Shown here: piece by piece, positions 585 through 12,873 of the stretch
Position numbering within the stretch: position 1 is the first letter of the stretch
Layout: every line of letters begins with the position of its first letter
From: a virus
UHGV virus genome: UHGV-1356053
Direction: 5' to 3' (one strand)
Length of the DNA stretch: 14,087 nucleotides
Position numbers and translations under genes: made by a program
Notes under the pieces: generated by a model
Told to the model about the DNA's origin: nothing
The model's database searches: none
Seen by the model: only the letters and a program-made list of their open reading frames with translations

Positions 585-610
585 AGGACGCATAGTCGTC
601 CTTTATTTTT
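585..610 (+). terminator. Rho-independent terminator candidate
   Basis: AGGACG (585-590), 6-nt loop CATAGT, CGTCCT (597-602), then TTTATTTTT. Confidence 0.6.
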
Positions 611-639
611 AGCATAAACAACAGAATAAACACTGCACT

Positions 640-667
640 GTGTATTCATTCCAACGAGTGAATACAC
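640..667 (+). repeat. Perfect 9-bp inverted repeat (hairpin) in the cIII leader
   Basis: GTGTATTCA (640-648), 10-nt spacer, TGAATACAC (659-667). Confidence 0.6.
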
Positions 668-729
668 GGAGCAATGTCGCTCGTAACTAAACAGGAGCCG
701 ACTTGTTCTGATTATTGGAAATCTTCTTT

Positions 730-757
730 GCCCTCCAGTGTGAGGGCGATTTTTTAT
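730..757 (+). terminator. Rho-independent terminator candidate upstream of cIII
   Basis: GCCCTC (730-735), loop CAGTGT, GAGGGC (742-747), then GATTTTTTAT. Confidence 0.55.
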
Positions 758-819
758 GCATACCAATAACGCTTCACTCGAGGCGTTTTCGTTATGCAAT
801 CAAACAGAAGGAGTTACCC

Positions 820-954
820 ATGATGCACTTTCAGTTAGCGGGTAGCGGCGTCATGTCCGCTTTCTACCCGCACGAATCTGAATTATCACGCCGAGTTAAA
901 CAATTAATCAGAGCAGCAAAGAAACAACTGGAGGCGTTATGCGCAATGAAATAG
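820..954 (+). CDS. cIII: CIII-like protein (FtsH inhibitor family), 44 aa
   Basis: ATG 820 with AGAAGGAG 6 nt upstream; MMHFQLAGSGVMSAFYPHESELSRRVKQLIRAAKKQLEALCAMK resembles the conserved amphipathic core of lambda CIII (..AG..V....ES.L.R....L...) as recalled; sits upstream of kil as in lambda/P22. Confidence 0.6.
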   Translation: MMHFQLAGSGVMSAFYPHESELSRRVKQLIRAAKKQLEALCAMK

Positions 955-1091
955 CCATCAATCACCAGATGCTTCGTGCTGCACAGAACAAAGCAGTAAT
1001 AGCCAGATTTATTGGTGATTCAAAAATGTGGCTTGAAGCAAATAAAGCGATGAAATCAGCTATCAACCTTCCGTTGTATCGCAGGAAATGA
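939..1091 (+). CDS. kil: Kil-like small protein (host cell-division inhibitor family), 50 aa
   Basis: Below the ORF-track size cut-off. ATG 939 overlaps the cIII 3' end in another frame. MRNEIAINHQMLRAAQNKAVIARFIGDSKMWLEANKAMKSAINLPLYRRK shares the IA.FIGD.KM..EA motif with lambda Kil as recalled. Confidence 0.55.
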   Translation: MRNEIAINHQMLRAAQNKAVIARFIGDSKMWLEANKAMKSAINLPLYRRK

Positions 1092-1166
1092 GTTTTACAG
1101 ATAACTGGTCAGACGAAGAATTCATTCGTCAGATGAAAGATTTAATCGGTAACGAAGGAGATATTC

Positions 1167-1337
1167 ATGTCACTTGCAACCACAGTGAAGGAGAGCAAGT
1201 TACAGAGACGCATGTACACGCAGCAGGCGTTAATGTATCGCCAGAAGGGAGATCGTGAAGGTGTTCGCGTATTTTTAAATGCGGCAAAGACTGAAGTATT
1301 AAATCAGCGTTATTTCCTTGGGCCATGTCCATTCTGA
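1167..1337 (+). CDS. Hypothetical small basic protein, 56 aa, in the position of P22 arf
   Basis: ATG 1167 preceded by AAGGAG with 6-nt spacing; ends 8 nt before the annealing-protein start. An overlapping alternative frame (1088-1258) is also open. Confidence 0.4.
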   Translation: MSLATTVKESKLQRRMYTQQALMYRQKGDREGVRVFLNAAKTEVLNQRYFLGPCPF

Positions 1338-1345
1338 GGTGAATT

Positions 1346-2053
1346 ATGGATTTGAATAAATTCGATGAGCCATTCAGCCCTGAAGATATCGAATGGCGAA
1401 TACAGCAAAGCGGTAAAACACGCGATGGAAAGGTGTGGGCTATGGTGCTGGCTTATGTCACGAACAGGGCAATCATGAAACGCCTGGACGATGTTTGCGG
1501 CAAAGCAGGATGGCGCAATGAATACCGCGATATTCCCAACAACGGCGGCGTTGAATGCGGCATATCAATCAGGATTGATTCCGAATGGGTAACCAAATGG
1601 GATGCTGCTGAAAACACGCAGGTAGAAGCCGTCAAAGGTGGTCGTTCAGGTGCAATGAAGCGTGCTGCCGTTCAGTGGGGAATCGGTCGGTATCTGTATA
1701 ACCTTGAGGAAGGTTTCGCACAAACATCTCTCGATAAAAAGCATGGGTGGCACAGGGCAAAACTGAAGGATGGAACAGGATTTTACTGGCTCCCTCCATC
1801 GCTGCCGGGATGGGCAATCCCAGCATCAGATAACAAACCATCACCAGAAAATACCAACCAGAAATCTCCATCGGTTGACTGCGAACAAATCCTGAAAGAC
1901 TTCAGCGATTATGCGTCAACAGAAACTGACAAGAAAAAACTCATCGAGCGTTATCAGCGTGACTGGCAATTAATGGCTGGCAACGAGGAAGCGCAGGCTA
2001 AATGCGTTCAGGTAATGAACATCAGAGTTAACGAACTAAAACAGGCGGCATAA
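1346..2053 (+). CDS. Single-strand annealing protein, Rad52/Sak-type recombinase (235 aa)
   Basis: Pattern pEDIewR...GkvwamvlaYVtnRaimkRLddvcGkaGW...AMKRAAVQWGIGRYLY fits the Rad52 N-terminal annealing fold; no Walker A motif; sits in the erf/bet position directly upstream of ssb. Confidence 0.85.
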   Translation: MDLNKFDEPFSPEDIEWRIQQSGKTRDGKVWAMVLAYVTNRAIMKRLDDVCGKAGWRNEYRDIPNNGGVECGISIRIDSEWVTKWDAAENTQVEAVKGGRSGAMKRAAVQWGIGRYLYNLEEGFAQTSLDKKHGWHRAKLKDGTGFYWLPPSLPGWAIPASDNKPSPENTNQKSPSVDCEQILKDFSDYASTETDKKKLIERYQRDWQLMAGNEEAQAKCVQVMNIRVNELKQAA

Positions 2054-2560
2054 ATGGCAAGCAGAGGCGTAAATAAGGTGATTATCCTTGGTCGGGTAGG
2101 ACAAGACCCGGAAGTTCGATACTCACCATCAGGAACAGCGTTCGCTAACCTGACAATAGCCACGTCAGAACAATGGCGAGATAAAAATACTGGCGAGCAA
2201 AAGGAATTGACTGAATGGCATCGTGTTGCTGTATCCGGGAAACTGGCTGAGGTCGTGGGGCAGTATGTAAAAAAAGGTGATCAGATTTATTTCGAGGGAA
2301 TGCTGAGAACCAGAAAGTGGAAAGACCAGTCAGGGCAAGACCGTTACACAACCGAGGTTCATGTCGGAATTAATGGCGTGATGCAAATGCTTGGCGGCAT
2401 TGGCGACAGCAAACAACAAGCAGCCAGCAGGCAATCACAGAAGCCACAGCAGCAATCATCACCAGCACAACACAACGAACCTCCGATGGATTTTGACGAC
2501 GATATACCCTTTGCACCAGTAACTCTCCCCTTCCCTCGTCACGCTATTCACGCAATTTAA
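2054..2560 (+). CDS. ssb: Single-stranded DNA-binding protein (168 aa)
   Basis: [23 protein letters not shown]...TEWHRV...[12 protein letters not shown]... with Gln/Pro-rich linker and canonical acidic tail MDFDDDIPF; start abuts the preceding stop (TAA-ATG). Confidence 0.95.
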
Positions 2561-2573
2561 TCAGGAGAAAAAC

Positions 2574-2870
2574 ATGCCAGCGCCTCTGTATGGTGCGGAC
2601 GACGCACGCCGCTGTTCCGGCAATTCCGTATCGGAGGTGCTGGATAAATTCAGAAAAAACTACGACCTGATAATGTCGCTACCGCAGGAAACGAAAAAGG
2701 AAAAGGAATTTCGCCATTGTATATGGCTTGCAGAGAAAGAAGAACGCGATCGAATTTACCAGACATCAATCCGACCATTCCGCAAAGCCACATATACCCA
2801 CTTCCCTGAATATATCGACCCGCGCCTGCGTAATTACCGCTCACGCTATGGCGCTATCAGTAATGACTGA
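2574..2870 (+). CDS. Hypothetical protein, 98 aa; positionally equivalent to P22 abc (anti-RecBCD) genes, function unverified
   Basis: ATG 2574 with AGGAG 6 nt upstream; basic, Arg/Lys-rich; directly follows the annealing protein and ssb. Confidence 0.75.
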
Positions 2871-2880
2871 GGAATTTACC

Positions 2881-3045
2881 ATGAGAGGACTTGCATACAA
2901 TCCCGGCATTCTTCCGGCAGAAATGATTATTCGCCAACGCGTAAAGCCAATGCCATCGAGAGAGGAATTGCTTAAGAGAAATAGTTTCGGTTCTGTTAAT
3001 GACAACAAATATCTGAATGCAATGTGGCGGAGTGGGAAGAAATGA
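2881..3045 (+). CDS. Hypothetical small protein, 54 aa
   Basis: ATG 2881 with GAGGAA upstream; its stop overlaps the next start (ATGA at 3042-3045), suggesting translational coupling. Confidence 0.45.
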
Positions 3046-3548
3046 AACAAATGTCACTAATTGAGATGGATGGTTTTCTGAAAGGTAAATTCTTCCCACG
3101 AGATTTAAAGGTTAACGAAACAAACGCTGAATATCTTGTCCGTAAGTTCGGTGAACTTGAATCAAAACTGGAAACGGCGTTGCGTGAGTGTCGTTCTGCT
3201 GGAATCACGATTGATAACCTTGAGGCCAAGTGCGCTGCGCTGGCAGCAGAGAATGCGGGGATGAAGAAGTTCTGCAAAGACGATGCATTCGATGCCGATT
3301 ACGAAGCAGAGCTAGGTATGGAGCGTGGTGGATTCAGTGATGCGCTTAACGAAATCAAAACCCCAGCCACCGATGCTTTTCTGGCTGAAGTACGGGCGCA
3401 GGGGGTAGAGATGTACGCAGATAACCTCGACAACGGAGCAGACGACGCAGAACGAGGTGGTTTTGATTATGCCGTTAAGTTTCTACGCAGTGAAGCGTCT
3501 AGTGTACGTTTGTTCGCCGACCAGCTTCGCAAAGGAGGCAACCAGTGA
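3042..3548 (+). CDS. Ea22-like coiled-coil protein (168 aa)
   Basis: ATG 3042 with GGGAAGA upstream (the track's GTG 3024 would overlap the previous gene); acidic helical sequence; stop overlaps the next start (GTGA at 3545-3548). Confidence 0.75.
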
Positions 3549-3997
3549 GCAAGATTGACTATCAGGCACTGCGTGCTAAGGCAGAAAAAGCAACGTGTGG
3601 CGAGTGGTCGCTCGAATATGGAGAGGGCCGATTTGATGGTGATGATGCGCTAATTCATCGCGAGGCTGCTGGATATATTCCCATTTGCAGAATTGAAGGA
3701 GCGCATCCTGAAAGCGGTTTCGATGAAGATTTCCAAATAGAACAGCAGGCCAATGCTGAATTCATCGCCGCAGCCAATCCAGCTACCGTGCTGGCGCTGC
3801 TGGATGAGCTGGAAGCCAAAGACAAGCGGATTGCTGACATGGAGGCGCGGGAGGTTGTACTGCCGCGTGCGCACGATGTTCACCCATTAGGGCCGCAGTC
3901 GGCGAAAATTTTTTGTGAGTTTCACCGGAGTATCGTGAACAGATGCGCCGATGAGATTCGCAAGGTTGGCGTCAAAGTCAGCATCAAGGGGAATTAG
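3545..3997 (+). CDS. Ead/Ea22-like protein (150 aa)
   Basis: GTG start with AAGGAGG 9 nt upstream; contains ...NAEFIAAANPATVLALLDELEA... which I recognise as the conserved Ead/Ea22 motif of lambdoid ea-region proteins. Confidence 0.8.
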   Translation: MSKIDYQALRAKAEKATCGEWSLEYGEGRFDGDDALIHREAAGYIPICRIEGAHPESGFDEDFQIEQQANAEFIAAANPATVLALLDELEAKDKRIADMEAREVVLPRAHDVHPLGPQSAKIFCEFHRSIVNRCADEIRKVGVKVSIKGN

Positions 3998-4001
3998 GGA
4001 T

Positions 4002-4598
4002 ATGGCTGAACTAACCAAAGAATGGCTGAAGCAAACTATCGCTGAATACGAAGCCAATCGTGATGAATTACCGTTTGGACTGGATACCAACAGTGCCATT
4101 GAGCTTCAGGCGTTCAAGTTGGCGCTGGCATCGCTGGAAGCAGATCCAGTTGCTTATATTTTCAAACATCCGGCCGGGAAATTATTCTGGGCTTTAACGG
4201 ATGAAAGCAATAAAGAGCAATCGGACGTTATTCCTGTTTATGCCGCCCCTCCAGTGCCAGTAGTACCTGAAGAAAAACCAATGCCTAACCCTCTTAAAAT
4301 GTACGCGGTTGATGCTGTTGCCGCTATTGAAGAGGTGAGAGGCTGGAACGCCTGTCGTGCCGCTATGCTTCAGAGTCAAGGTAATTGCATTAAGGATGGT
4401 TGGATAAGCTGTAGTGATCGAATGCCGGAAGACACCAAAATGTTACTGGCATTTAGTCAAGGTGAAATCGTGGCCGCATATTGGAACTGGGTTGTAAATC
4501 CAATTGATTACAAAAAATATAGAGCTTTCACGTATTTATCAGGAAATATCTTGGATGACGTAACTCACTGGATGCCGCTACCAGAGCCTCCACTTTGA
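4002..4598 (+). CDS. DUF551-type C-terminal domain protein (198 aa)
   Basis: ATG 4002 (MAELTKEWLKQ) with GGGA upstream; C-terminus GWISCSDRMPED...AAYWNW...HWMPLPEPPL matches the DUF551 signature as recalled. Confidence 0.8.
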   Translation: MAELTKEWLKQTIAEYEANRDELPFGLDTNSAIELQAFKLALASLEADPVAYIFKHPAGKLFWALTDESNKEQSDVIPVYAAPPVPVVPEEKPMPNPLKMYAVDAVAAIEEVRGWNACRAAMLQSQGNCIKDGWISCSDRMPEDTKMLLAFSQGEIVAAYWNWVVNPIDYKKYRAFTYLSGNILDDVTHWMPLPEPPL

Positions 4599-4694
4599 AA
4601 GCGAAGCTTATACATATCTTTTACATCAGCAATCTATTGTTAATCTCCAATCAATGTTACGTTGTCATCTCACTCATGCTTTGGAGGTAGTGAT

Positions 4695-4874
4695 ATGTCT
4701 TGTCCAAAATGCGGTTGTGGAAATATTGCAAAAGAAAAAACAATGCGTGGATGGTCTGGTGATTATGTGTGCTGCGATTGCGGATACAACGACTCTAAAG
4801 ACGCATTTGGAGAGCGTGGTAAAAACGAGTTTGTCAAAATTAATAAAGATCGCGAAGGCAACGGAAAAAGCTAA
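4695..4874 (+). CDS. Small zinc-ribbon protein (59 aa, two CxxC-type pairs)
   Basis: ATG 4695 with GGAGG 7 nt upstream; MSCPKCGCGNIAKEKTMRGWSGDYVCCDCGYND... Confidence 0.6.
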   Translation: MSCPKCGCGNIAKEKTMRGWSGDYVCCDCGYNDSKDAFGERGKNEFVKINKDREGNGKS

Positions 4875-4939
4875 TTTATTATTCATATATGAAAACAATG
4901 TAACCAATATTCGAATTGAAGAACTGAAAGAACACCAAG

Positions 4940-4960
4940 CCGCCTGATGGCGGTTTTTTT
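4940..4960 (+). terminator. Rho-independent terminator
   Basis: CCGCC (4940-4944), loop TGAT, GGCGG (4949-4953), then seven T (4954-4960). Confidence 0.7.
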
Positions 4961-4974
4961 ATTGGAGACAAGAA

Positions 4975-5319
4975 ATGTCAGATTTGGCTATGAAGGTTTT
5001 GAAATGGCAATCAACTGGCGATGTTGGCATCAGTAGCGCAACTCTTGCCTCAATCGCATGTGGGCTGAAAAAGAATATCTATGGTCATCACTTCGGCGCT
5101 CCCCATGACGCAGCAGACTTTCGGCGATGCGTTGCACTTGTTGAGCAGATTCCAGAAATCAGAGATTCATTCGACAAGGTTGCAAAGCGCGTTCCGGCAT
5201 TCAAAGGAATCCTCAACGAATGGGATTCACTCGTTGCTCTGTTGAAGTCTGAAATGAAGATACACGGAAACAAAGCACCAGAGACTTACAGAAGAATCAG
5301 CGAGCTACGCAAGGACTAA
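4975..5319 (+). CDS. Hypothetical protein, 114 aa
   Basis: ATG 4975 with GGAGA 6 nt upstream, immediately after the 4940-4960 terminator; no recognisable motif. Confidence 0.75.
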   Translation: MSDLAMKVLKWQSTGDVGISSATLASIACGLKKNIYGHHFGAPHDAADFRRCVALVEQIPEIRDSFDKVAKRVPAFKGILNEWDSLVALLKSEMKIHGNKAPETYRRISELRKD

Positions 5320-5406
5320 CCCGCCTCACACTCGATGAGGCCTGTACATTTCTCAAGATATCCAGACCTACCGCAATCATGTCAATCCAATAAATGGAGA
5401 TTCCAG

Positions 5407-5754
5407 GTGGAAGAAGAAATCTTCACTCGTGAAGAAGCTGCGTCGTATCTGAAGGTAGACAAAGGCACTATCACACAGTGGATACGAAGTGGACGACTTC
5501 AGGCCGCAAAGATAAATCCAGATAAACCTAAAAGTCCATATCGCATTTGCAAGTCAGACTGCATTGCGGCGCTTAAGTCTGTGAGACACAATAGCGCGGT
5601 GAATGCGGTTGATGTGCAGGAGGTTAAAGCATGTCAATCAAACTACGCGGTGGCACGTGGCACTGCGATTTCGTCGCGCCAGATGGATCAAGAGTTAGAC
5701 GCTCTCTTGAAACATCGGACAAAAGGCAAGCGCAAGAACTTCACGATCGTCTGA
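5407..5754 (+). CDS. xis: Excisionase (helix-turn-helix Xis family), 115 aa
   Basis: GTG 5407 with GGAGA 6 nt upstream is the best-supported start (the track's ATG 5335 has no RBS); FTREEAASYLKVDKGTITQWIRSGRLQAAKI is an excisionase-type HTH; 3' end overlaps the int start by 124 nt in another frame. Confidence 0.65.
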   Translation: MEEEIFTREEAASYLKVDKGTITQWIRSGRLQAAKINPDKPKSPYRICKSDCIAALKSVRHNSAVNAVDVQEVKACQSNYAVARGTAISSRQMDQELDALLKHRTKGKRKNFTIV

Positions 5755-6791
5755 AAGCAGAAGCGTGGAGAGTAAAAAATCTCGGGGAATCACCGAAAAA
5801 GCTATTCAAGGAAGCCTGCATACGGTGGCTGCGTGAGAAATCGGATAAGAAGTCCATTGATGATGACAAGAGCATTATATCGTTCTGGATGTTGCACTTC
5901 AGAGAAGCCATTCTCTCTGACATAACAACAGAAAAAATAATGGAGGCGGTAGACGGGATGGAAAACCGCCGCCATCGCCTGAACTGGGAGATGAGCCGGG
6001 ACAGGTGTTTGCGACTTGGCAATCCGGTGCCGGAGTATAAACCAAAGCTGGCAAGCAAAGGAACGAAGACGAGGCATCTGGCAATACTTCGCGCCATTCT
6101 CAATATGGCTGTTGAATGGGGATGGCTTGACAGGGCACCCAAAATATCAACACCACGCGTTAAGAATGGACGCATCAGATGGCTTACAGAGGAGGAATCG
6201 AAGCGCCTGTTTGCAGAAATTGCTCCTCACTTCTTCCCTGTGGTCATGTTTGCAATCACGACAGGCCTTCGCCGTTCCAACGTTACAGACCTTGAGTGGT
6301 CACAGGTCGATCTGGATAAGAAAATGGCATGGATGCACCCTGATGAAACAAAAGCTGGCAATGCGATCGGAGTTCCTCTTAACGAAACCGCATGCCAGAT
6401 ATTAAGAAAACAGCAGGGGCTCCATAAGAGATGGGTATTTGTCCACACCAAACCTGCCTACCGAAGCGACGGAACAAAAACAGCAGCGGTAAGGAAGATG
6501 AGAACCGACAGCAACAAGGCATGGAAGGGAGCGTTAAAGCGGGCAGGCATTAGCAACTTCCGCTTCCATGACCTGAGGCATACCTGGGCAAGCTGGCTGG
6601 TTCAGTCCGGTGTCTCTCTTCTTGCACTTAAAGAGATGGGAGGATGGGAAACTCTCGAAATGGTTCAAAGATACGCCCACCTTTCAGCCGGGCATCTCAC
6701 CGAGCACGCGAGCAAAATCGATGCGATTATAAGTCGCAATGGCACAAATACGGCACAAGAGGAGAACGTAGTTTACTTAAATGTGAGGTAA
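5631..6791 (+). CDS. int: Tyrosine integrase, P22 Int type (386 aa)
   Basis: AGGAGG upstream of ATG 5631; resembles P22 Int throughout as recalled (KRQAQELHDRLKAEAWRV, TGLRRSN, FRFHDLRHTWASWLVQ, GGWE..EMVQRYAHL with the catalytic R..HxxR..Y pattern); ends 15 bp from the att core. Confidence 0.97.
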   Translation: MSIKLRGGTWHCDFVAPDGSRVRRSLETSDKRQAQELHDRLKAEAWRVKNLGESPKKLFKEACIRWLREKSDKKSIDDDKSIISFWMLHFREAILSDITTEKIMEAVDGMENRRHRLNWEMSRDRCLRLGNPVPEYKPKLASKGTKTRHLAILRAILNMAVEWGWLDRAPKISTPRVKNGRIRWLTEEESKRLFAEIAPHFFPVVMFAITTGLRRSNVTDLEWSQVDLDKKMAWMHPDETKAGNAIGVPLNETACQILRKQQGLHKRWVFVHTKPAYRSDGTKTAAVRKMRTDSNKAWKGALKRAGISNFRFHDLRHTWASWLVQSGVSLLALKEMGGWETLEMVQRYAHLSAGHLTEHASKIDAIISRNGTNTAQEENVVYLNVR

Positions 6792-6805
6792 CTTATTGAT
6801 TTAAA

Positions 6806-6851
6806 TGGTGCCGATAATAGGAGTCGAACCTACGACCTTCGCATTACGAAT
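6806..6851 (-). other. attP core: 46-bp copy of the 3' part of tRNA-Thr(CGU) (thrW-type target); not a complete tRNA gene
   Basis: Minus strand reads ATTCGTAATGCGAAGGTCGTAGGTTCGACTCCTATTATCGGCACCA: anticodon-loop 3' half, T-arm GGTTCGACTCC, acceptor 3' strand and CCA. The sequence 5' of it (GGTGCTACAG) does not continue the tRNA, so only the att-core part is present. Confidence 0.85.
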
Positions 6852-6910
6852 CTGTAGCACCAATCATAACTATCTGTTTTAGCAAGCATTAACCGCATTC
6901 ACCAAGCAAT

Positions 6911-7046
6911 AGTTGATGGCACAAACAGAAAGTTGATGCATGATGTTGTCATGTGTATGTCACAAATACGGCACAACGATCTTCAAACATGTAGCCACTC
7001 AGCATAGAAGAGCACAAAGCCTTGCAATCCAGTGCAAAGCTTTGTG
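6911..7046. repeat. Short repeats in the attP arm; candidate arm-type Int/IHF sites and a hairpin
   Basis: AGTTGATG twice (6911-6918, 6931-6938); sCACAA(A/C) four times (6918-6927, 6959-6969, 6970-6979, 7010-7020); inverted repeat CACAAAGC (7013-7020) / GCTTTGTG (7039-7046) followed by T-rich sequence. Confidence 0.4.
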
Positions 7047-7082
7047 TGTCTCAGTTTTGTTTCATCGGTAATTATGTGTTCG

Positions 7083-7382
7083 CTACGATGCAAGAATCCA
7101 TACCAATAAGCATCCGATAATTGGGAAAGAAAAATCCAACAGACTTCCCACATCCCACACGCGTGGATCAAAACCTCCCCACCACGGCATGTTGATGCGT
7201 TTCCCTTTCCCAAACTTTTCTATCCAGCGATATTCTGCCTGGGTGTGTTCACGCGCAATGAAGAACGTACAACCGGCTATCGCACCGTAAGCCCAGTTTC
7301 CGGTAGAAAGGCCAACCAGTACCTGAGCCGCAAAAGCGCAAAGCGAGTGAAGAAATGGAGTGACATCAATGCTCTTAATCAT
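7083..7382 (-). CDS. Hypothetical small membrane protein (99 aa), translationally coupled to the tailspike
   Basis: Its ATG (7382-7380) overlaps the tailspike stop (ATGA); hydrophobic segments [30 protein letters not shown] and [16 protein letters not shown]; occupies the tailspike-to-attP slot where P22 and Sf6 carry gtrABC or oac. Confidence 0.65.
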
Positions 7383-9436
7383 GAAACTTCCCCATTGGTT
7401 GAAAATATGGCTCCTCCAACGCCAAGTGTATTTCGTGTTGCGCTCAACCTCAGAGGGCTGGAGTCAGAATTAGAATATCCTGTAGCAGAAATAAAAGATC
7501 CTCCACTAATAGTCAACTGCGGAACATCGGCTATATCTGAATAAGTTCTGTCAGCAACAGTATTATTTATAGCCACATGTGATCCAAAAAAACTTCTTAT
7601 TGTTTGGTTTTTAACTTTACTTCCTTCAATGGTTATCCTACTACCACAGTCGGCAATAAATCCTGAATCTGCATCCAGCGTTGCATTCATAAAAGAAGCT
7701 TCAGATCTCTCTACATCAATCCATCTAATATCTTTTGTGGGATTTGCACCAAATACATGACAAATATTAGAGTTAAACCTTACTCCATCTTGGAGGTGCA
7801 TTAATTTTTTTATATCTGTACCCCATAGCCTTGGAAAATTAACAGATGCTCCTGCATGGCAATCAAATCCCAGCTCAGCCCCTGAGATATCTACAGCCTT
7901 TCCTGAAATAACAGCGCCAGTGTCTGCATTAACGGCTGTTCCACAATTGCGCATATCATTACCAGCAACATCAACACAACCCGCACCATCAATACGCACA
8001 CCAAGCGCACATCCATAAAAACCTTTTTCAATATTTGGTTCAAGGACTTTACCACTTGTTTCTGCATCACTTTCTTCAACGTCATGTCGTCTTGCATCAA
8101 CATATGCTGTATGAATGCAGGTTAATCCACGATATGAGCAGTGTATAGTTTTATGGTCGCGTATATTAACATTTGAACCATCTCTTACATTCCACCCCAT
8201 ATAACAATAGCTTGCACTTGACCCCTGAAAATCTGCTTTAACATTATAAATACAATTAACTGACGCAACCGTACTCTCTGTGCACCGTTCAAACTTGCTT
8301 ACAGGCATTGATGCCTTGACATTATTTACCAGTTGCAGGGAAGAGTATCTGCTATAAGAAAAATCACATACGTAATACCCTTCTGGCATATATGCAGCAA
8401 CACTTTCCTCATCAGGAGCACATCCGGTATGATATGCACTAATTTTTGCACCAAAGCTACCATGAATTCCAACGTAGAACTTTCGAGCACCTGAATACGG
8501 ATAGAAATTAAGTTCAGCTTTTTGAGTTACAATAAATGCACAAACATCGCTATCATCTCTATTTTCTTCAATCTGAATAGCAAATACAGGACTTTTTGCT
8601 GCATCGCAAATGTAAAATAAATATTTGTATTCGTAATACGTCCTAACAGTTTTAGTAAACAAACTGGTATCAGAGAAAACCACTGAGTCTTCTGATATTA
8701 TTTTAATCCATGATAAGTCACATCCTGCTGAAATTTCTATTTGCTCATTGAGCACAAAACCGGAAAGAATTTTAATTATGCAAAAATCAATGCCATTTTT
8801 CCATAGTGGACGCAGTGCAACAGCTGAGTTTAGAGCATCACTAATAGATTTAAAATTACCATATTCCCCAACTGTTATTGTGAATGCATACCTGGAATTA
8901 AATACTGCGGCACTCTCTCCAGAGTTAATAGCTGCAGATATCATGTCATAATTTGATATAAAATCATTTGGCGTGATTATTTCTGCGTTTTTATTGTGCT
9001 GTGTTCTAAGTTTTGAATTTACATGAACACTTTTAACTGCAATACGGGAGTCGTCAACAAGTATTTCATTACCCTCTGTTGCTAACTCTTGTCTTAACTG
9101 ATCCGGGTCATACTTCAGCACATTCGGAAAATAGAACTGCTGCACACCGTACGCATCATAAACAGCCATAGAATGGCCCTGTACAGTAACGAATTTGGCA
9201 ATCTGTCCGTTATATACAGGGTAACCAGCAGCGTTAATGATGATTGGTTGCGAAACAGGAACGTGAGAACCGTCTTCGTTTTCCACATAAACCTGAATCT
9301 GGTTTTCAGGATTTACCGGGTCAGTGTCAATTTTCCCGATATAAATTTTGCCATTGGCTACGGCTTTAAAAGAACGCGCCATAGTGAAGAGTTGCGAAGG
9401 CATACTCACTACAACATTGGCTGTAATGTCTGTCAT
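7379..9436 (-). CDS. Tailspike protein: P22/Sf6-type N-terminal head-binding domain plus divergent receptor-binding (putative depolymerase) body, 685 aa
   Basis: N-terminal ~115 aa ([46 protein letters not shown]...NVLKYDPDQ) match the podovirus tailspike head-binding domain as recalled; the rest is Gly/Asn/Ser/Val/Cys-rich repetitive sequence compatible with a beta-helix; GGAG 8 nt upstream of the ATG. Confidence 0.95.
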
Positions 9437-9582: not shown

Positions 9583-9834
9583 ATGGGAAGAGATGACCCG
9601 CAATTTAATCTGCGGCTACCTTACGAATTAAAGGAAAAACTAAAACAGCGAGCCAAATCCAATGGCCGCTCTCTTAATTCAGAATTAGTTCAGATAGTGA
9701 CTGATGCTGTATCAAAGCCATCCAAAATTTCAGGCTATCGAGACGATGCGGAACGCATCGCTGATGAGCAGTCAGAGCTTGTTAAGAAGATGGTGTTTGA
9801 TACGCTGAAGGATTTGTACAAAAAACCCACCTGA
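9583..9834 (+). CDS. mnt: Mnt-type ribbon-helix-helix repressor (83 aa)
   Basis: MGRDDPQFNLRLPYELKEKLKQRAKSNGRSLNSELVQIVTDAVSKPSKISGYRDDAERIADEQSELVKKMVFDTLKDLYKKPT matches P22 Mnt along its whole length as recalled, including the C-terminal ADEQSELVKKMVFDTLKDLYKK. Confidence 0.93.
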   Translation: MGRDDPQFNLRLPYELKEKLKQRAKSNGRSLNSELVQIVTDAVSKPSKISGYRDDAERIADEQSELVKKMVFDTLKDLYKKPT

Positions 9835-11025: not shown

Positions 11026-12873
11026 TTATTGCTGTTCTGCTGTAATTTGGCTTGAAAGTATAGGGCGTATCGCATTTGCAGCATTATTTAGCGCTCTTTC
11101 ATAGGCTGGTGTTCCTGCTTTGGTGTTTGCCAAACGTAAGAGAGCATTCCTTGCTGCTTTTGACTCATACAAGCGCATCATTGCACCGAAACCAGCCTCA
11201 AGCCCCATTGATACGCCAAGAGTCGCAGTTGCGCCAATCGTCCTTATCCTGTTGGCTTGCGATTGCCCCGTCTGAGTTACTACATTTGCGGTGTCTGACC
11301 TTGCTGTTTGCTGTAGAACTTCATGAAGAGAATCAAGCTCTTTCATGTGCTTTCCAGAAAAAATAGTGTTGTAAATTTCACCGCCTGACTGAGATTTCAG
11401 CTTATTAACTTCAGTGATGAACTTGGCTGGAGAGTCACCGGCCTTTTCCGCTATTTTGCTGACATAAGCTGCACGCATAGCATCTTTCCCTTTATTATCC
11501 AATGCGCTCCAGATTCGTTTCACGTCAGATGGTTTTCTGCTTAATACAACGGTATTTATAAGTTCAGGACTGGCTTCACTGCTTGCCTTGTTGAGCTTGT
11601 TAGCAATGTTTTTATTAAGCACCTTATTATAAACGTTTGCATAATCGGAATTTGCTTTAAGGTATTTTGCTGCGTCTGATGCACCGAGGTTTTTTGCAAC
11701 TGCGTTACGAAGATCTTTTGACATTGCATTCTCTACCATATTGGTAGCTGCTTTTGCCTGGTTTGGGAAGACCATAGCATCTCCCTGAACATTAGATCTA
11801 AATGCTGTTCTGTGCTGACGCAAGAGATCAAACGTAACATCCAAATCAGTTGCAGGGTTTGCTAATTCTTCACGTAGGTTACGCAAGGATGTAAGCAGGC
11901 TTTGATTGGCAGACGTCCCAAGCCGTTCCTGTCTTGCGATCGCTGTATTCAGAGCATTCATGGTATTTGTGGTATCAACTGCGGCATTACCCATTTTATT
12001 GGTGACGTCATTGATAACAGCGCCAGCGGCATCCTTCCGCCCCCTTAACGTGGTGGTAAGAGATTTCACCACATCATCAGGGTTGTACTCACCAAAACGG
12101 TCAAAATAATTACTTACCAGCTTACTACGCGTTGCATATTGCTCCGCTCGCTTTGAGCCTGTCCCGAGCAAAGCCCCCTCGGCATCCTGAGTTAGGCCGC
12201 GAGTGAAAGCATTTTTCGGCGGGATAACATCAGATGTCATTGGTGTCACGCCCATCGATTCTGATGTGGCAATTTTCTTCGCCACTTCTGGCGCAATATC
12301 ACCTTTTATAGCCGTTATTCCACGCCCTATTCCCTTTGCTGCTGCGGAAAGAACCCCCTGAGCGGCAAGGTTAACTCCGGCATTTTTAGCTGCATTTTGT
12401 GCGAAATCGCCTTTCTGATTTGCGGCCTCTGCCAGTGATCCAATAGCCATGCTTCCTGCCGTTCCAACTCCTGGAACTAAATACCCGCCAATTGTTTCTC
12501 CAGCTTGCGCATAAGGGTCTGTTGGTCGATCGACTGGACGATAGACATCGTCCAAAACCTTGGGGCCACCAAGCCCCTGGCTGATTGCATTAATCAGACT
12601 TGCGCCGCCCTGCAATACGTCAAATGGTATGTTTACCAGACCACGACCAGCCTGTTCCGCAATTTGCCCTGCACTTTGACCACCAGTGAGCCAATCGCCA
12701 GCTTGTTGCATCAATGATGGTTCTTCCCGTGTTGGTGCATTATTGGCCTGATTAACTGTTTGTTGCTGAACAGCCTGACCAGCAAAATACTCATCAATGG
12801 CGGTGCCAATATCTTCGGTGCTCGTACCATCAGGAAAGGTAAATATCTTACCGTTTGCAGTTACTTTCATCAT
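11026..12873 (-). CDS. Ejection (DNA-transfer) protein, P22 gp16-like by size and position (615 aa)
   Basis: Ala/Gly/Gln-rich soluble protein of the size expected for gp16, immediately upstream (in late-operon direction) of the sieA/immI-position island and tailspike. The second ATG (12870) has the better-spaced GGTGG RBS. Confidence 0.8.

Follow-up and report, generated by a model that had tools for sequence, protein, structure and literature searches.

Mosaic tailspikes are textbook biology, and such an architecture is ordinary when taken alone. Almost all characterised beta-helix tailspikes of podoviruses are enzymes. In E. coli phages, Lederberg-, Uetake- and Justusliebigviruses included, the anchor is conserved within each phage genus and the receptor-binding domain (RBD) is swapped across genera, and some RBD subtypes span several O serogroups, with K antigens suggested as receptors (Pas et al. 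2023, Virol J 20:174). The RBD subtype carried by phages JEP4, HZ41, 92CQ and HEMP4 is absent from that survey, and the literature on these four phages and on VEc3 contained no functional or host-serotype information. The locus described here belongs to this subtype and lies in a 14,087-nt stretch of viral DNA (UHGV-1356053), the whole of which is called the window. Its features were as follows.

7379..9436, minus strand: tailspike (receptor-binding protein) gene, from the list of open reading frames and its translation, phrog_5662 and matches to HZ41 and JEP4.
9098..9436, minus strand: head-binding (tail-attachment) domain, aa 1-113, with the YDPDQ motif at its end, from Pfam PF09008 and PDB matches.
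9009..9097, minus strand: linker, aa 114-142, reaching from the P22-type joint to where 92CQ identity starts, from a column-by-column comparison.
7382..9008, minus strand: receptor-binding cassette (aa 143-685) that opens with a cap subdomain at its N-terminal end and continues as a right-handed parallel beta-helix, with GC 0.37-0.38 and GC3 0.23.
8751, no strand: internal joint at ~aa 228, where high DNA identity to the HEMP4-type tailspike starts, from blastn HSP limits.
7356..7382, no strand: 3' joint zone, within which stop and start codons overlap as ATGA (7379-7382), from the limits of 92CQ and Gally identity.
7083..7382, minus strand: orf99, a small membrane-protein accessory gene (moron) 3' of the tailspike, from phrog_1443.
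7013..7046, minus strand: terminator-like hairpin (14-bp stem) that closes the late operon, at the boundary to the HK75/mEpX2-type integrase module.

The open reading frame at 7379-9436 (685 aa, ATG start, TGA stop sharing ATGA with the next ATG) matched phrog_5662 ('tail fiber protein') over its full length, and its product was 99.6 and 97.4% identical to the tailspikes of HZ41 and JEP4, respectively, both of them Lederbergvirus. As in P22-like phages, the gene came last in the late operon, preceded by the ejection-protein genes and by the immI (mnt/arc) region (gp16-like DNA transfer protein at 11026-12873 and Arc/Mnt-like gene at 9583-9834), and the tailspike region was syntenic with those of JEP4, HZ41, Gally and Sf6. 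The product is the tailspike of a temperate coliphage of the P22-like (Lederbergvirus) type. The earlier note on this DNA had assigned the first ~115 residues to a P22/Sf6-type head-binding domain, and this assignment was upheld by Pfam Head_binding (PF09008, aa 1-113, E 2e-66, entire model covered) and by phmmer matches to the N-termini of the Sf6 gp14, P22 and HK620 tailspikes in the PDB, which ended at aa ~116-160. At the DNA level the domain was 89-96% identical to those of six other P22-like phages, the matches ending at 9082-9098. By analogy with P22 and Sf6, it would attach a trimer to the tail hub; that the protein is trimeric is an assumption based on its family, and the structure model is one of the body monomer.

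The 570-aa body had no sequence relative in Pfam or the PDB, and a profile of 24 homologues searched against PDB sequences matched N-terminal anchors and nothing in the body. Its proposed lack of relationship with the P22 endorhamnosidase was borne out, as phmmer aligned only aa 1-116 to P22 chains in the PDB, and neither this search nor the 24-homologue profile detected homology of the body to residues ~125-666 of P22 gp9. The body comprised a small cap subdomain and then a long beta-helix, right-handed and parallel as in pectin-lyase-fold phage depolymerases; in Foldseek the P22 fragment 2vfm appeared at rank 48, with a TM of 0.13. The helix closely resembled teichoic-acid-targeting receptor-binding proteins (RBPs) of podoviruses of the Andhra gp15/phi29 gp12 type, with 17% identity in the structural alignment to Andhra gp15 (PDB 8egr); phmmer and profile searches gave no sequence match between the body and either of these proteins. 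The module belongs to an uncharacterised beta-helix family, in whose alignment D125, D135, E176, R178, D243, D304, H327, R334, D379 and R381 (body numbering) were invariant, and two homologues carried an added SGNH esterase. Most likely adsorption starts with the binding of a surface polysaccharide by the module, which probably also cleaves it.

In blastn comparisons the DNA of the body shared 98.8% identity with a tail-fibre gene of 92CQ, a phi92-like myovirus, and 97.5% with the tailspike gene of the epsilon15-like phage HEMP4, and each phage paired the module with its own anchor (P22-type head-binding domain in the window, phi92-like myovirus tail-fibre and epsilon15-type in the others). 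The flanks of the body in 92CQ and HEMP4 were checked for homology to the window and showed none, so that the claim of a mosaic cassette survived. Anchors found in front of the module or its relatives comprised PF09008, PF18668, PF12571, PF03906 and the epsilon15-type, the more distant relatives having at least two additional kinds of anchor. The body is therefore a horizontally exchanged, mobile cassette, and because the same DNA occurs at 97.5-99% identity in three unrelated backbones, recent transfer is a fact whatever explains its GC. In each of the three backbones a variable cassette occupied the tailspike slot, so none of them is singled out as donor, and the data are compatible with transfer in any direction.

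A sharp compositional shift within the gene, claimed in the earlier note from G+C counts in five 60-nt samples, was confirmed both in the counts, all five of which were exact (15 at 7561-7620, 18 at 8521-8580, 25 at 9061-9120, 34 at 7141-7200 and 36 at 6541-6600), and in a scan of GC and GC3. The body (aa 116-685) presented a GC of 0.377 and a GC3 of 0.231; corresponding values were 0.435 and 0.435 in the head-binding domain, 0.483 and 0.490 in orf99, 0.495 and 0.525 in int, and about 47% and about 45% in the backbone genes of the window. It was the lowest-GC stretch of 1713 bp in the 14 kb (z = -6.6 for GC vs. the rest of the window and -9.5 for GC3 vs. the other genes), and a maximum-likelihood fit with two breakpoints put the GC steps at ~7465 and ~9070, with a log-likelihood gain of 23.4 nats; the breakpoint at ~7465, on the 3' side, matches no recombination joint. 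Since shorter dips to GC 0.38-0.40 occurred at 151-600 and 4350-5100, the step is significant yet low GC is not unique to the tailspike gene.

The backbone of 92CQ (37.5-38.5% GC, GC3 0.26) equalled the tailspike body in composition; bodies of other P22-like tailspikes ranged from 41 to 46% GC. The GC of the module fits low-GC virulent phi92-like phages and not the temperate backbone, which suggests an origin in that gene pool. Codon usage of the body was neutral in a likelihood ratio of 92CQ-type vs. window-type usage (+0.02 bits per codon) and singled out no donor; the case for a low-GC source is therefore carried by GC, GC3 and the shared DNA. Of the earlier proposal that the cassette was acquired from a low-GC source, the acquisition is supported by the DNA shared at 98.8 and 97.5%, and the low-GC source is made plausible by the match with 92CQ.

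A recombination joint had been predicted near the domain boundary, and a 5' joint was indeed found just after YDPDQ, at about 9096-9098, where similarity to each of the six P22-like phages compared breaks off (window ~9082-9098); instead of a single joint, several nested ones were found, at 9097, 9008 and 8751. The linker between the first two (aa 114-142) was private to the lineage of the window, JEP4 and HZ41, other P22-like phages diverging after 9098, and identity to 92CQ started at ~9008, at the RTQHNKN motif. Upstream of 8751 the window and HEMP4-type proteins were diverged yet homologous, with an alignment that began at aa 141 and an overall identity of 88.8%. On the 3' side, identity to 92CQ stopped at ~7375 (weak to 7366), that to Gally, which has the same orf99 and a different tailspike, started at ~7356, and the segment shared with HEMP4 ran on through orf99 to ~7130. 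This joint, which had been placed exactly at the ATGA overlap, accordingly lies 4-25 nt past the stop codon, near the overlap but not at it. The last 29 codons, of higher GC, were considered as a separate mosaic piece; this was ruled out, as they are identical in 92CQ and HEMP4.

The gene downstream, orf99, matched phrog_1443 (unknown function), and its homologues come after tailspike or tail-fibre genes in P22-like, epsilon15-like and lambdoid phages. Having backbone GC and being found behind unrelated tailspikes and tail fibres, it was rejected as part of the cassette and belongs to the backbone, where it may act as a 3' homology arm. Down to ~7006 the window resembled JEP4, HZ41 and Gally, and similarity to mEpX2/HK75 covered 585-7060; the hairpin at 7013-7046 is thus also the border of the P22-like and the HK75/mEpX2-type integrase modules. 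Exchange would most likely proceed by recombination at short conserved sequences on both sides of the module, the candidate sites on the 5' side being RTQH(N/D)KN and the YDPDQ motif that closes the head-binding domain, and those on the 3' side the stop-codon region or the conserved orf99, with prophages within one host as likely partners. Taking all these data together, we regard it as highly probable that the locus as a whole is best explained by a P22-type anchor joined to an exchangeable low-GC receptor module that is a mobile cassette.

What the module recognises was approached through the hosts. A classical P22-like tailspike, such as that of HK620 (O18A1) or Sf6, would be an endoglycosidase that acts on the O-antigen of a single E. 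coli serogroup. Against this, three lysogens whose tailspike DNA was 98-99% identical to that of the window had O11, O7 and rml+glf-type O-antigen clusters, as found from their RefSeq annotation, so carriers were not restricted to one O serogroup among these three. When each cluster was searched against 5426 genomes, the other 13 carrier records were absent from the genomes listed (all 18 genomes with the EC332 type, 60 of the 66 with O11 and 60 of the 99 with O7). Moreover, EC332 and MS 198-1 each hold both prophage types (chance p ~6e-5) but differ in O cluster. O-antigen specificity, rejected on the differing serogroups of the lysogens, is very unlikely. One of two related kps loci with a TagF-like polymerase was present in 13 of the 16 carrier genomes, EC332, GN02461 and GPEC1186 being left out. 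Region 2 of kps type A occurred in 10 of 16 carrier records vs. 40 of 5426 genomes (Fisher p ~1e-18, a value that ignores clonality), and type B was common to three further carriers (PCP07083, FORC_082 and PD23). The two types share PF04464 in their TagF-like polymerases, which are 47% identical, and their GalT-like proteins are 63% identical; both anchor types were found with both kps types, and EC332 held both prophages and lacked type A; its kps locus was not found, the genome being rearranged relative to that of MS 198-1. In K1 strains the epsilon15 anchor carries K1 endosialidase bodies. As the O-antigen clusters differ and the kps loci are shared, a capsule-specific tailspike is the likeliest reading, and we give the capsule, rather than the O-antigen, about an even chance of being the receptor. 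What the hosts have in common suggests a group 2 capsule with phosphodiester (teichoic-acid-like) linkages. K52 is the probable identity of type A, and many type-A carriers are probably ST69.

The association with kps is confounded by clonal descent, and it could also reflect clonal hitch-hiking, the true receptor being another lineage-linked surface structure, or vertical descent in ST69-like lineages. The kps DNA was essentially identical in the ten type-A carriers, several of which had the prophage ~650-675 kb from kps, and these two facts imply shared ancestry of those carriers; one carrier, 118UI, is ST69. However, two prophage backbones bore one module within a single kps type, CP033635 had a 99.2% variant of type A that points to a separate lineage, and the type-B carriers, in which both anchor types were seen, had identical kps proteins but differed in source and size (seawater, 4.68 Mb with O7; chicken meat, 4.73 Mb; pig, 5.18 Mb). 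Clonality is a rather unlikely explanation. That the module is an adhesin-like beta-helix which binds the receptor without depolymerase activity is, in our view, unlikely, given the enzymatic nature of nearly all characterised podovirus beta-helix tailspikes, the many invariant acidic and basic residues in the alignment, and the SGNH esterase of two homologues, which is typical of glycan-processing tailspikes. Furthermore, phi29 gp12, to which the module is structurally related, digests teichoic acid (PMC9863714). As for the low GC, it might be a bias intrinsic to receptor-binding domains, through sequence or selection, and not a mark of foreign origin. Consistent with this, the unrelated body of Gally was also somewhat low (0.408, GC3 0.28), and the codon usage of our body was not distinctly 92CQ-like; but five other P22-like bodies had a GC of 0.44-0.46, one and the same DNA occurred in three unrelated backbones, and its GC was that of the phi92-like backbone, which makes an intrinsic bias highly improbable.

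Returning to the capsule, we put forward tentatively, and with somewhat less than even confidence, that the module depolymerises, possibly as a phosphodiesterase, teichoic-acid-like group 2 capsules in E. coli, namely the type associated with ST69 (probably K52) and one related to it. In structure it would be akin to wall-teichoic-acid-targeting RBPs of Gram-positive podoviruses, and virulent phi92-like myoviruses and temperate podoviruses of two genera would be exchanging it at present. No K52 or K2 depolymerase features among the known K specificities as quoted in PMC12488582, and K52 was recently ranked highest among E. coli K types in invasive potential (PMC13171598). If confirmed, the protein could serve as a reagent for K typing, capsule stripping and phage engineering against ST69-type ExPEC. 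Independently of function, one receptor module at 97.5-99% DNA identity in a virulent myovirus and two temperate podovirus genera is a clean, datable case, in which the joints are placed within a few bases and both prophages reside together in two genomes, showing where swaps can happen.

Compared with known systems, the tailspike of the window follows the pattern of Pas et al. (2023), with the genus anchor kept and the RBD exchanged; in that study conserved flanking DNA motifs were described for lytic genera only, whereas here the phages are temperate and the joints lie at YDPDQ, RTQHNKN and orf99. The O-antigen endoglycosidases P22 gp9, Sf6 gp14 and HK620 gp9 differ from it in showing no sequence similarity past aa ~116-160, and its body, unlike theirs, is low in GC and its lysogens are not bound to one O serogroup. 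With gp15 of Staphylococcus epidermidis phage Andhra and the phi29 gp12 appendage it shares the beta-helix, but no homology detectable in sequence. CUS-3, a P22-like prophage of K1 strains, has a head-binding domain 96.6% identical over aa 1-118, and is likewise a temperate P22-like phage in which this domain is followed by a foreign module common to virulent phages and whose host tie is to a group 2 capsule and not to the O-antigen, as we infer for the window phage. The body of CUS-3 is an endosialidase beta-propeller (981 aa) with a specificity annotated as shown experimentally, whereas that of the window is a beta-helix whose specificity is deduced from its hosts; if the capsule reading is true, the window phage would be a functional analogue of the K1-specific CUS-3.

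The tailspike gene lies in a neighbourhood that corresponds to the late-operon end of a P22-like phage, and the features considered here are the following:

7379-9436, minus strand: tailspike ORF, 685 aa (ORF and translation)
7083-7382, minus strand: orf99, a predicted membrane protein of 99 aa (phrog_1443)
7013-7046, within 7004-7060: terminator-like hairpin, 14-bp stem
5631-6791: integrase (int), window neighbour
9583-9834: Arc/Mnt-like repressor, window neighbour
11026-12873: gp16-like DNA-transfer protein, window neighbour

Head_binding (PF09008; aa 1-113, E 2e-66) was the only Pfam domain found in the tailspike, and in a PDB sequence search the tailspikes of Sf6, P22 and HK620 aligned to aa 1-116 only (Sf6 up to 1-160), which confirms the P22/Sf6-type head-binding domain described earlier for the N-terminus. 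Protein identity over the tailspike was 99.6% with Lederbergvirus HZ41 and 97.4% with JEP4.

The remaining part of the protein (aa 116-685, hereafter the body) was found in phages of very different type. Window positions 7366-9008 shared 98.8% DNA identity with a "tail fiber" gene of 92CQ, a phi92-like (Justusliebig/Phapecoctavirus-type) myovirus of 129.8 kb in whose relatives the gene flanks are conserved and the central ~1.6 kb is swapped for other modules. Positions 7124-8751 shared 97.5% with HEMP4, a 39.9-kb phage whose 729-aa tailspike has an epsilon15/Uetakevirus-type anchor. A search of 5.8 billion proteins yielded 24 body homologues (35-99% identity), with PF09008, PF18668, PF12571, PF03906 or no recognised anchor. 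On these comparisons the body is a mobile cassette. An additional C-terminal SGNH/GDSL esterase domain was present in two distant homologues, P0013 and P0018, one anchored by Tail_spike_N and the other by a P22-type head-binding domain; this suggests deacylation of the substrate as a further activity of some members of the family.

The recombination joints varied depending on the phage compared. On the 5' side, Sf6, CUS-3, HK620, N7, Gally and Huey were 89-96% identical through ...TATGACCCGGATCAG (YDPDQ, aa 109-113) and diverged at 9082-9098, in agreement with a joint near the domain boundary; the earlier note needs correction on the number of joints, since identity to 92CQ started at the RTQHNKN motif (~9008, aa 143) and high identity to HEMP4 only at 8751 (aa ~228). 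A 29-residue linker private to the window lineage separates the P22-type joint from the 92CQ identity. On the 3' side, the tailspike TGA stop overlaps the ATG of orf99 as ATGA, and the earlier note had set the joint exactly there. This was accurate to within 4-25 nt for 92CQ, identical past the stop codon to ~7375, and for Gally, identical from ~7356 with the same downstream gene and a different tailspike in front, but wrong for HEMP4, whose identity continued across orf99 to ~7130.

GC and GC3 were 0.377 and 0.231 in the body, 0.435 and 0.435 in the head-binding domain, 0.483 and 0.490 in orf99, and 0.495 and 0.525 in int. The body was the lowest-GC 1713-bp stretch within the window; its z scores (GC -6.6, GC3 -9.5) and a two-breakpoint likelihood fit, with steps at ~7465 and ~9070, established the compositional step proposed from five 60-nt G+C counts, all exact on recount. 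The breakpoint falls at ~7465 because the final ~29 tailspike codons (7379-7465) have backbone-like GC and codon usage. Being identical in 92CQ and HEMP4, they were ruled out as a separate mosaic piece and therefore represent a conserved C-terminal peptide. Head-binding domains of the compared P22-like phages all had ~0.43 GC, and their other tailspike bodies 0.44-0.46 (Sf6, CUS-3, HK620, N7, Huey) or 0.41 (Gally). Body GC was 0.37-0.38 in each backbone bearing the cassette, matching the 92CQ backbone (GC 0.375-0.385, GC3 0.26). The codon-preference likelihood ratio between 92CQ-type and window-type usage favoured neither side in the body (+0.02 bits per codon) and clearly fell on the window side in backbone genes (-0.18 to -0.42). 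By composition, the cassette is out of place in the temperate backbone and typical of a phi92-like genome. The core of the earlier note, a mosaic tailspike with a foreign low-GC receptor cassette, was correct, and the low-GC source agrees with the 92CQ match; as to direction, transfer may have run from the phi92-like pool to the temperate backbone.

No Pfam match was obtained for orf99. Its homologues are located directly behind genes for tailspikes or side tail fibres, both in P22-like and epsilon15-like phages (the latter including HEMP4 and phiv142-3) and in many lambdoid ones (phage 21, mEp460); in HEMP4 holin-holin-endolysin comes next. It is a widespread accessory gene in a typical moron position, is part of the backbone, and could serve as downstream homology arm for RBD swaps. 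P22-like similarity (JEP4, HZ41, Gally) ended at ~7006, and 585-7060 was 97.6% identical to two lambdoid phages, mEpX2 and HK75, in their early/integrase module; the hairpin sits exactly in the overlap of both tracts. The window is thus itself mosaic: in its phage, the virion module is P22-like and the int/early-left module is of lambdoid-siphovirus type.

The AlphaFold2 model of the body (24-sequence alignment; pLDDT 92.6, pTM 0.87) opened with an alpha/beta cap and continued as a long beta-helix. The body, previously called unrelated to the P22 endorhamnosidase, therefore shares its fold class; the claim holds as regards sequence homology.

Among 5426 complete E. coli genomes, the module was carried on a P22-type tailspike in seven records (six distinct genomes) and on an epsilon15-type one in 11, 16 records in all. 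Both prophage types occurred in EC332 and in MS 198-1 (chance p ~6e-5):

P22-like and epsilon15-like prophage tailspikes, MS 198-1 and EC332: L012, NZ_CP146687.1 1501187-1503376; NZ_AP039429.1 1609422-1612011 and 3536911-3539100

Double carriage suggests that the two phages share a host-specific receptor, and the co-resident prophages, which could recombine, offer a natural setting for such exchange. One single O serogroup as receptor was excluded, as three lysogens differ in O cluster by PGAP names (MS 198-1 O11, PCP07083 O7, EC332 a third, rml+glf cluster); searches with these clusters did not recover the other carriers among the matches listed. In MS 198-1, an IS4 insertion splits galF, the gene directly upstream of the O11 cluster (L013 29779-32110).

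Two related group 2 capsule (kps) loci were distinguished:

821125-833030 (L026/L022), MS 198-1, beside yghD: type A group 2 capsule locus
818280-825373 (L025), PCP07083, common to FORC_082 and PD23: type B kps locus

Type A comprises kpsM, a GalT-like gene, a 1248-aa TagF-like polymerase (PF04464), kpsT, an 829-aa acyltransferase and three more genes, the K-specific genes thus separating kpsM from kpsT; type B comprises kpsM, kpsT, a GalT-like gene, a TagF-like polymerase (WP_000694258.1) and a 262-aa acyltransferase. Both polymerases have ~1250 aa and PF04464, with 47% identity between types (63% for the GalT-like proteins). No glycerol-3-phosphate cytidylyltransferase was annotated in either locus. 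An 8-kb region 2 probe of type A was found in only 40 of the 5426 genomes, ten of them carrier records (Fisher p ~1e-18, uncorrected for clonality). All 13 carriers examined, of the 16 records, had a TagF-type, phosphodiester-polymer capsule locus, and both anchor types were found with both kps types. Type A is probably K52, a name that we infer because 118UI is ST69, K52 predominates among the K types of CC69 (PMC13171598), and MS 198-1 shows the kpsM/kpsT rearrangement cited for K52 (PMC13171606).

The epsilon15 anchor (the initial ~180 aa of the HEMP4 protein) occurred at ~97% DNA identity in hundreds of E. coli genomes on other bodies, "GH28-related" and "endosialidase beta-propeller", with hosts including O1:K1 and O7:K1 strains; the P22-like CUS-3 also bears an endosialidase body. 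Capsule targeting thus has a precedent in both genera. Wall teichoic acid is digested by phi29 appendages (PMC9863714), and the Andhra authors tie the Andhra RBP to phi29 gp12 and to host teichoic-acid type. Tentatively, and at even chances or somewhat less, the module may depolymerise capsules made of teichoic-acid-like K antigens and be a structural ally of the RBPs with which Gram-positive phages target teichoic acid. Mosaic tailspikes are a well-known kind of element (Pas et al. 2023; CUS-3, HK620 and Sf6 literature); the particular receptor module here is uncharacterised.
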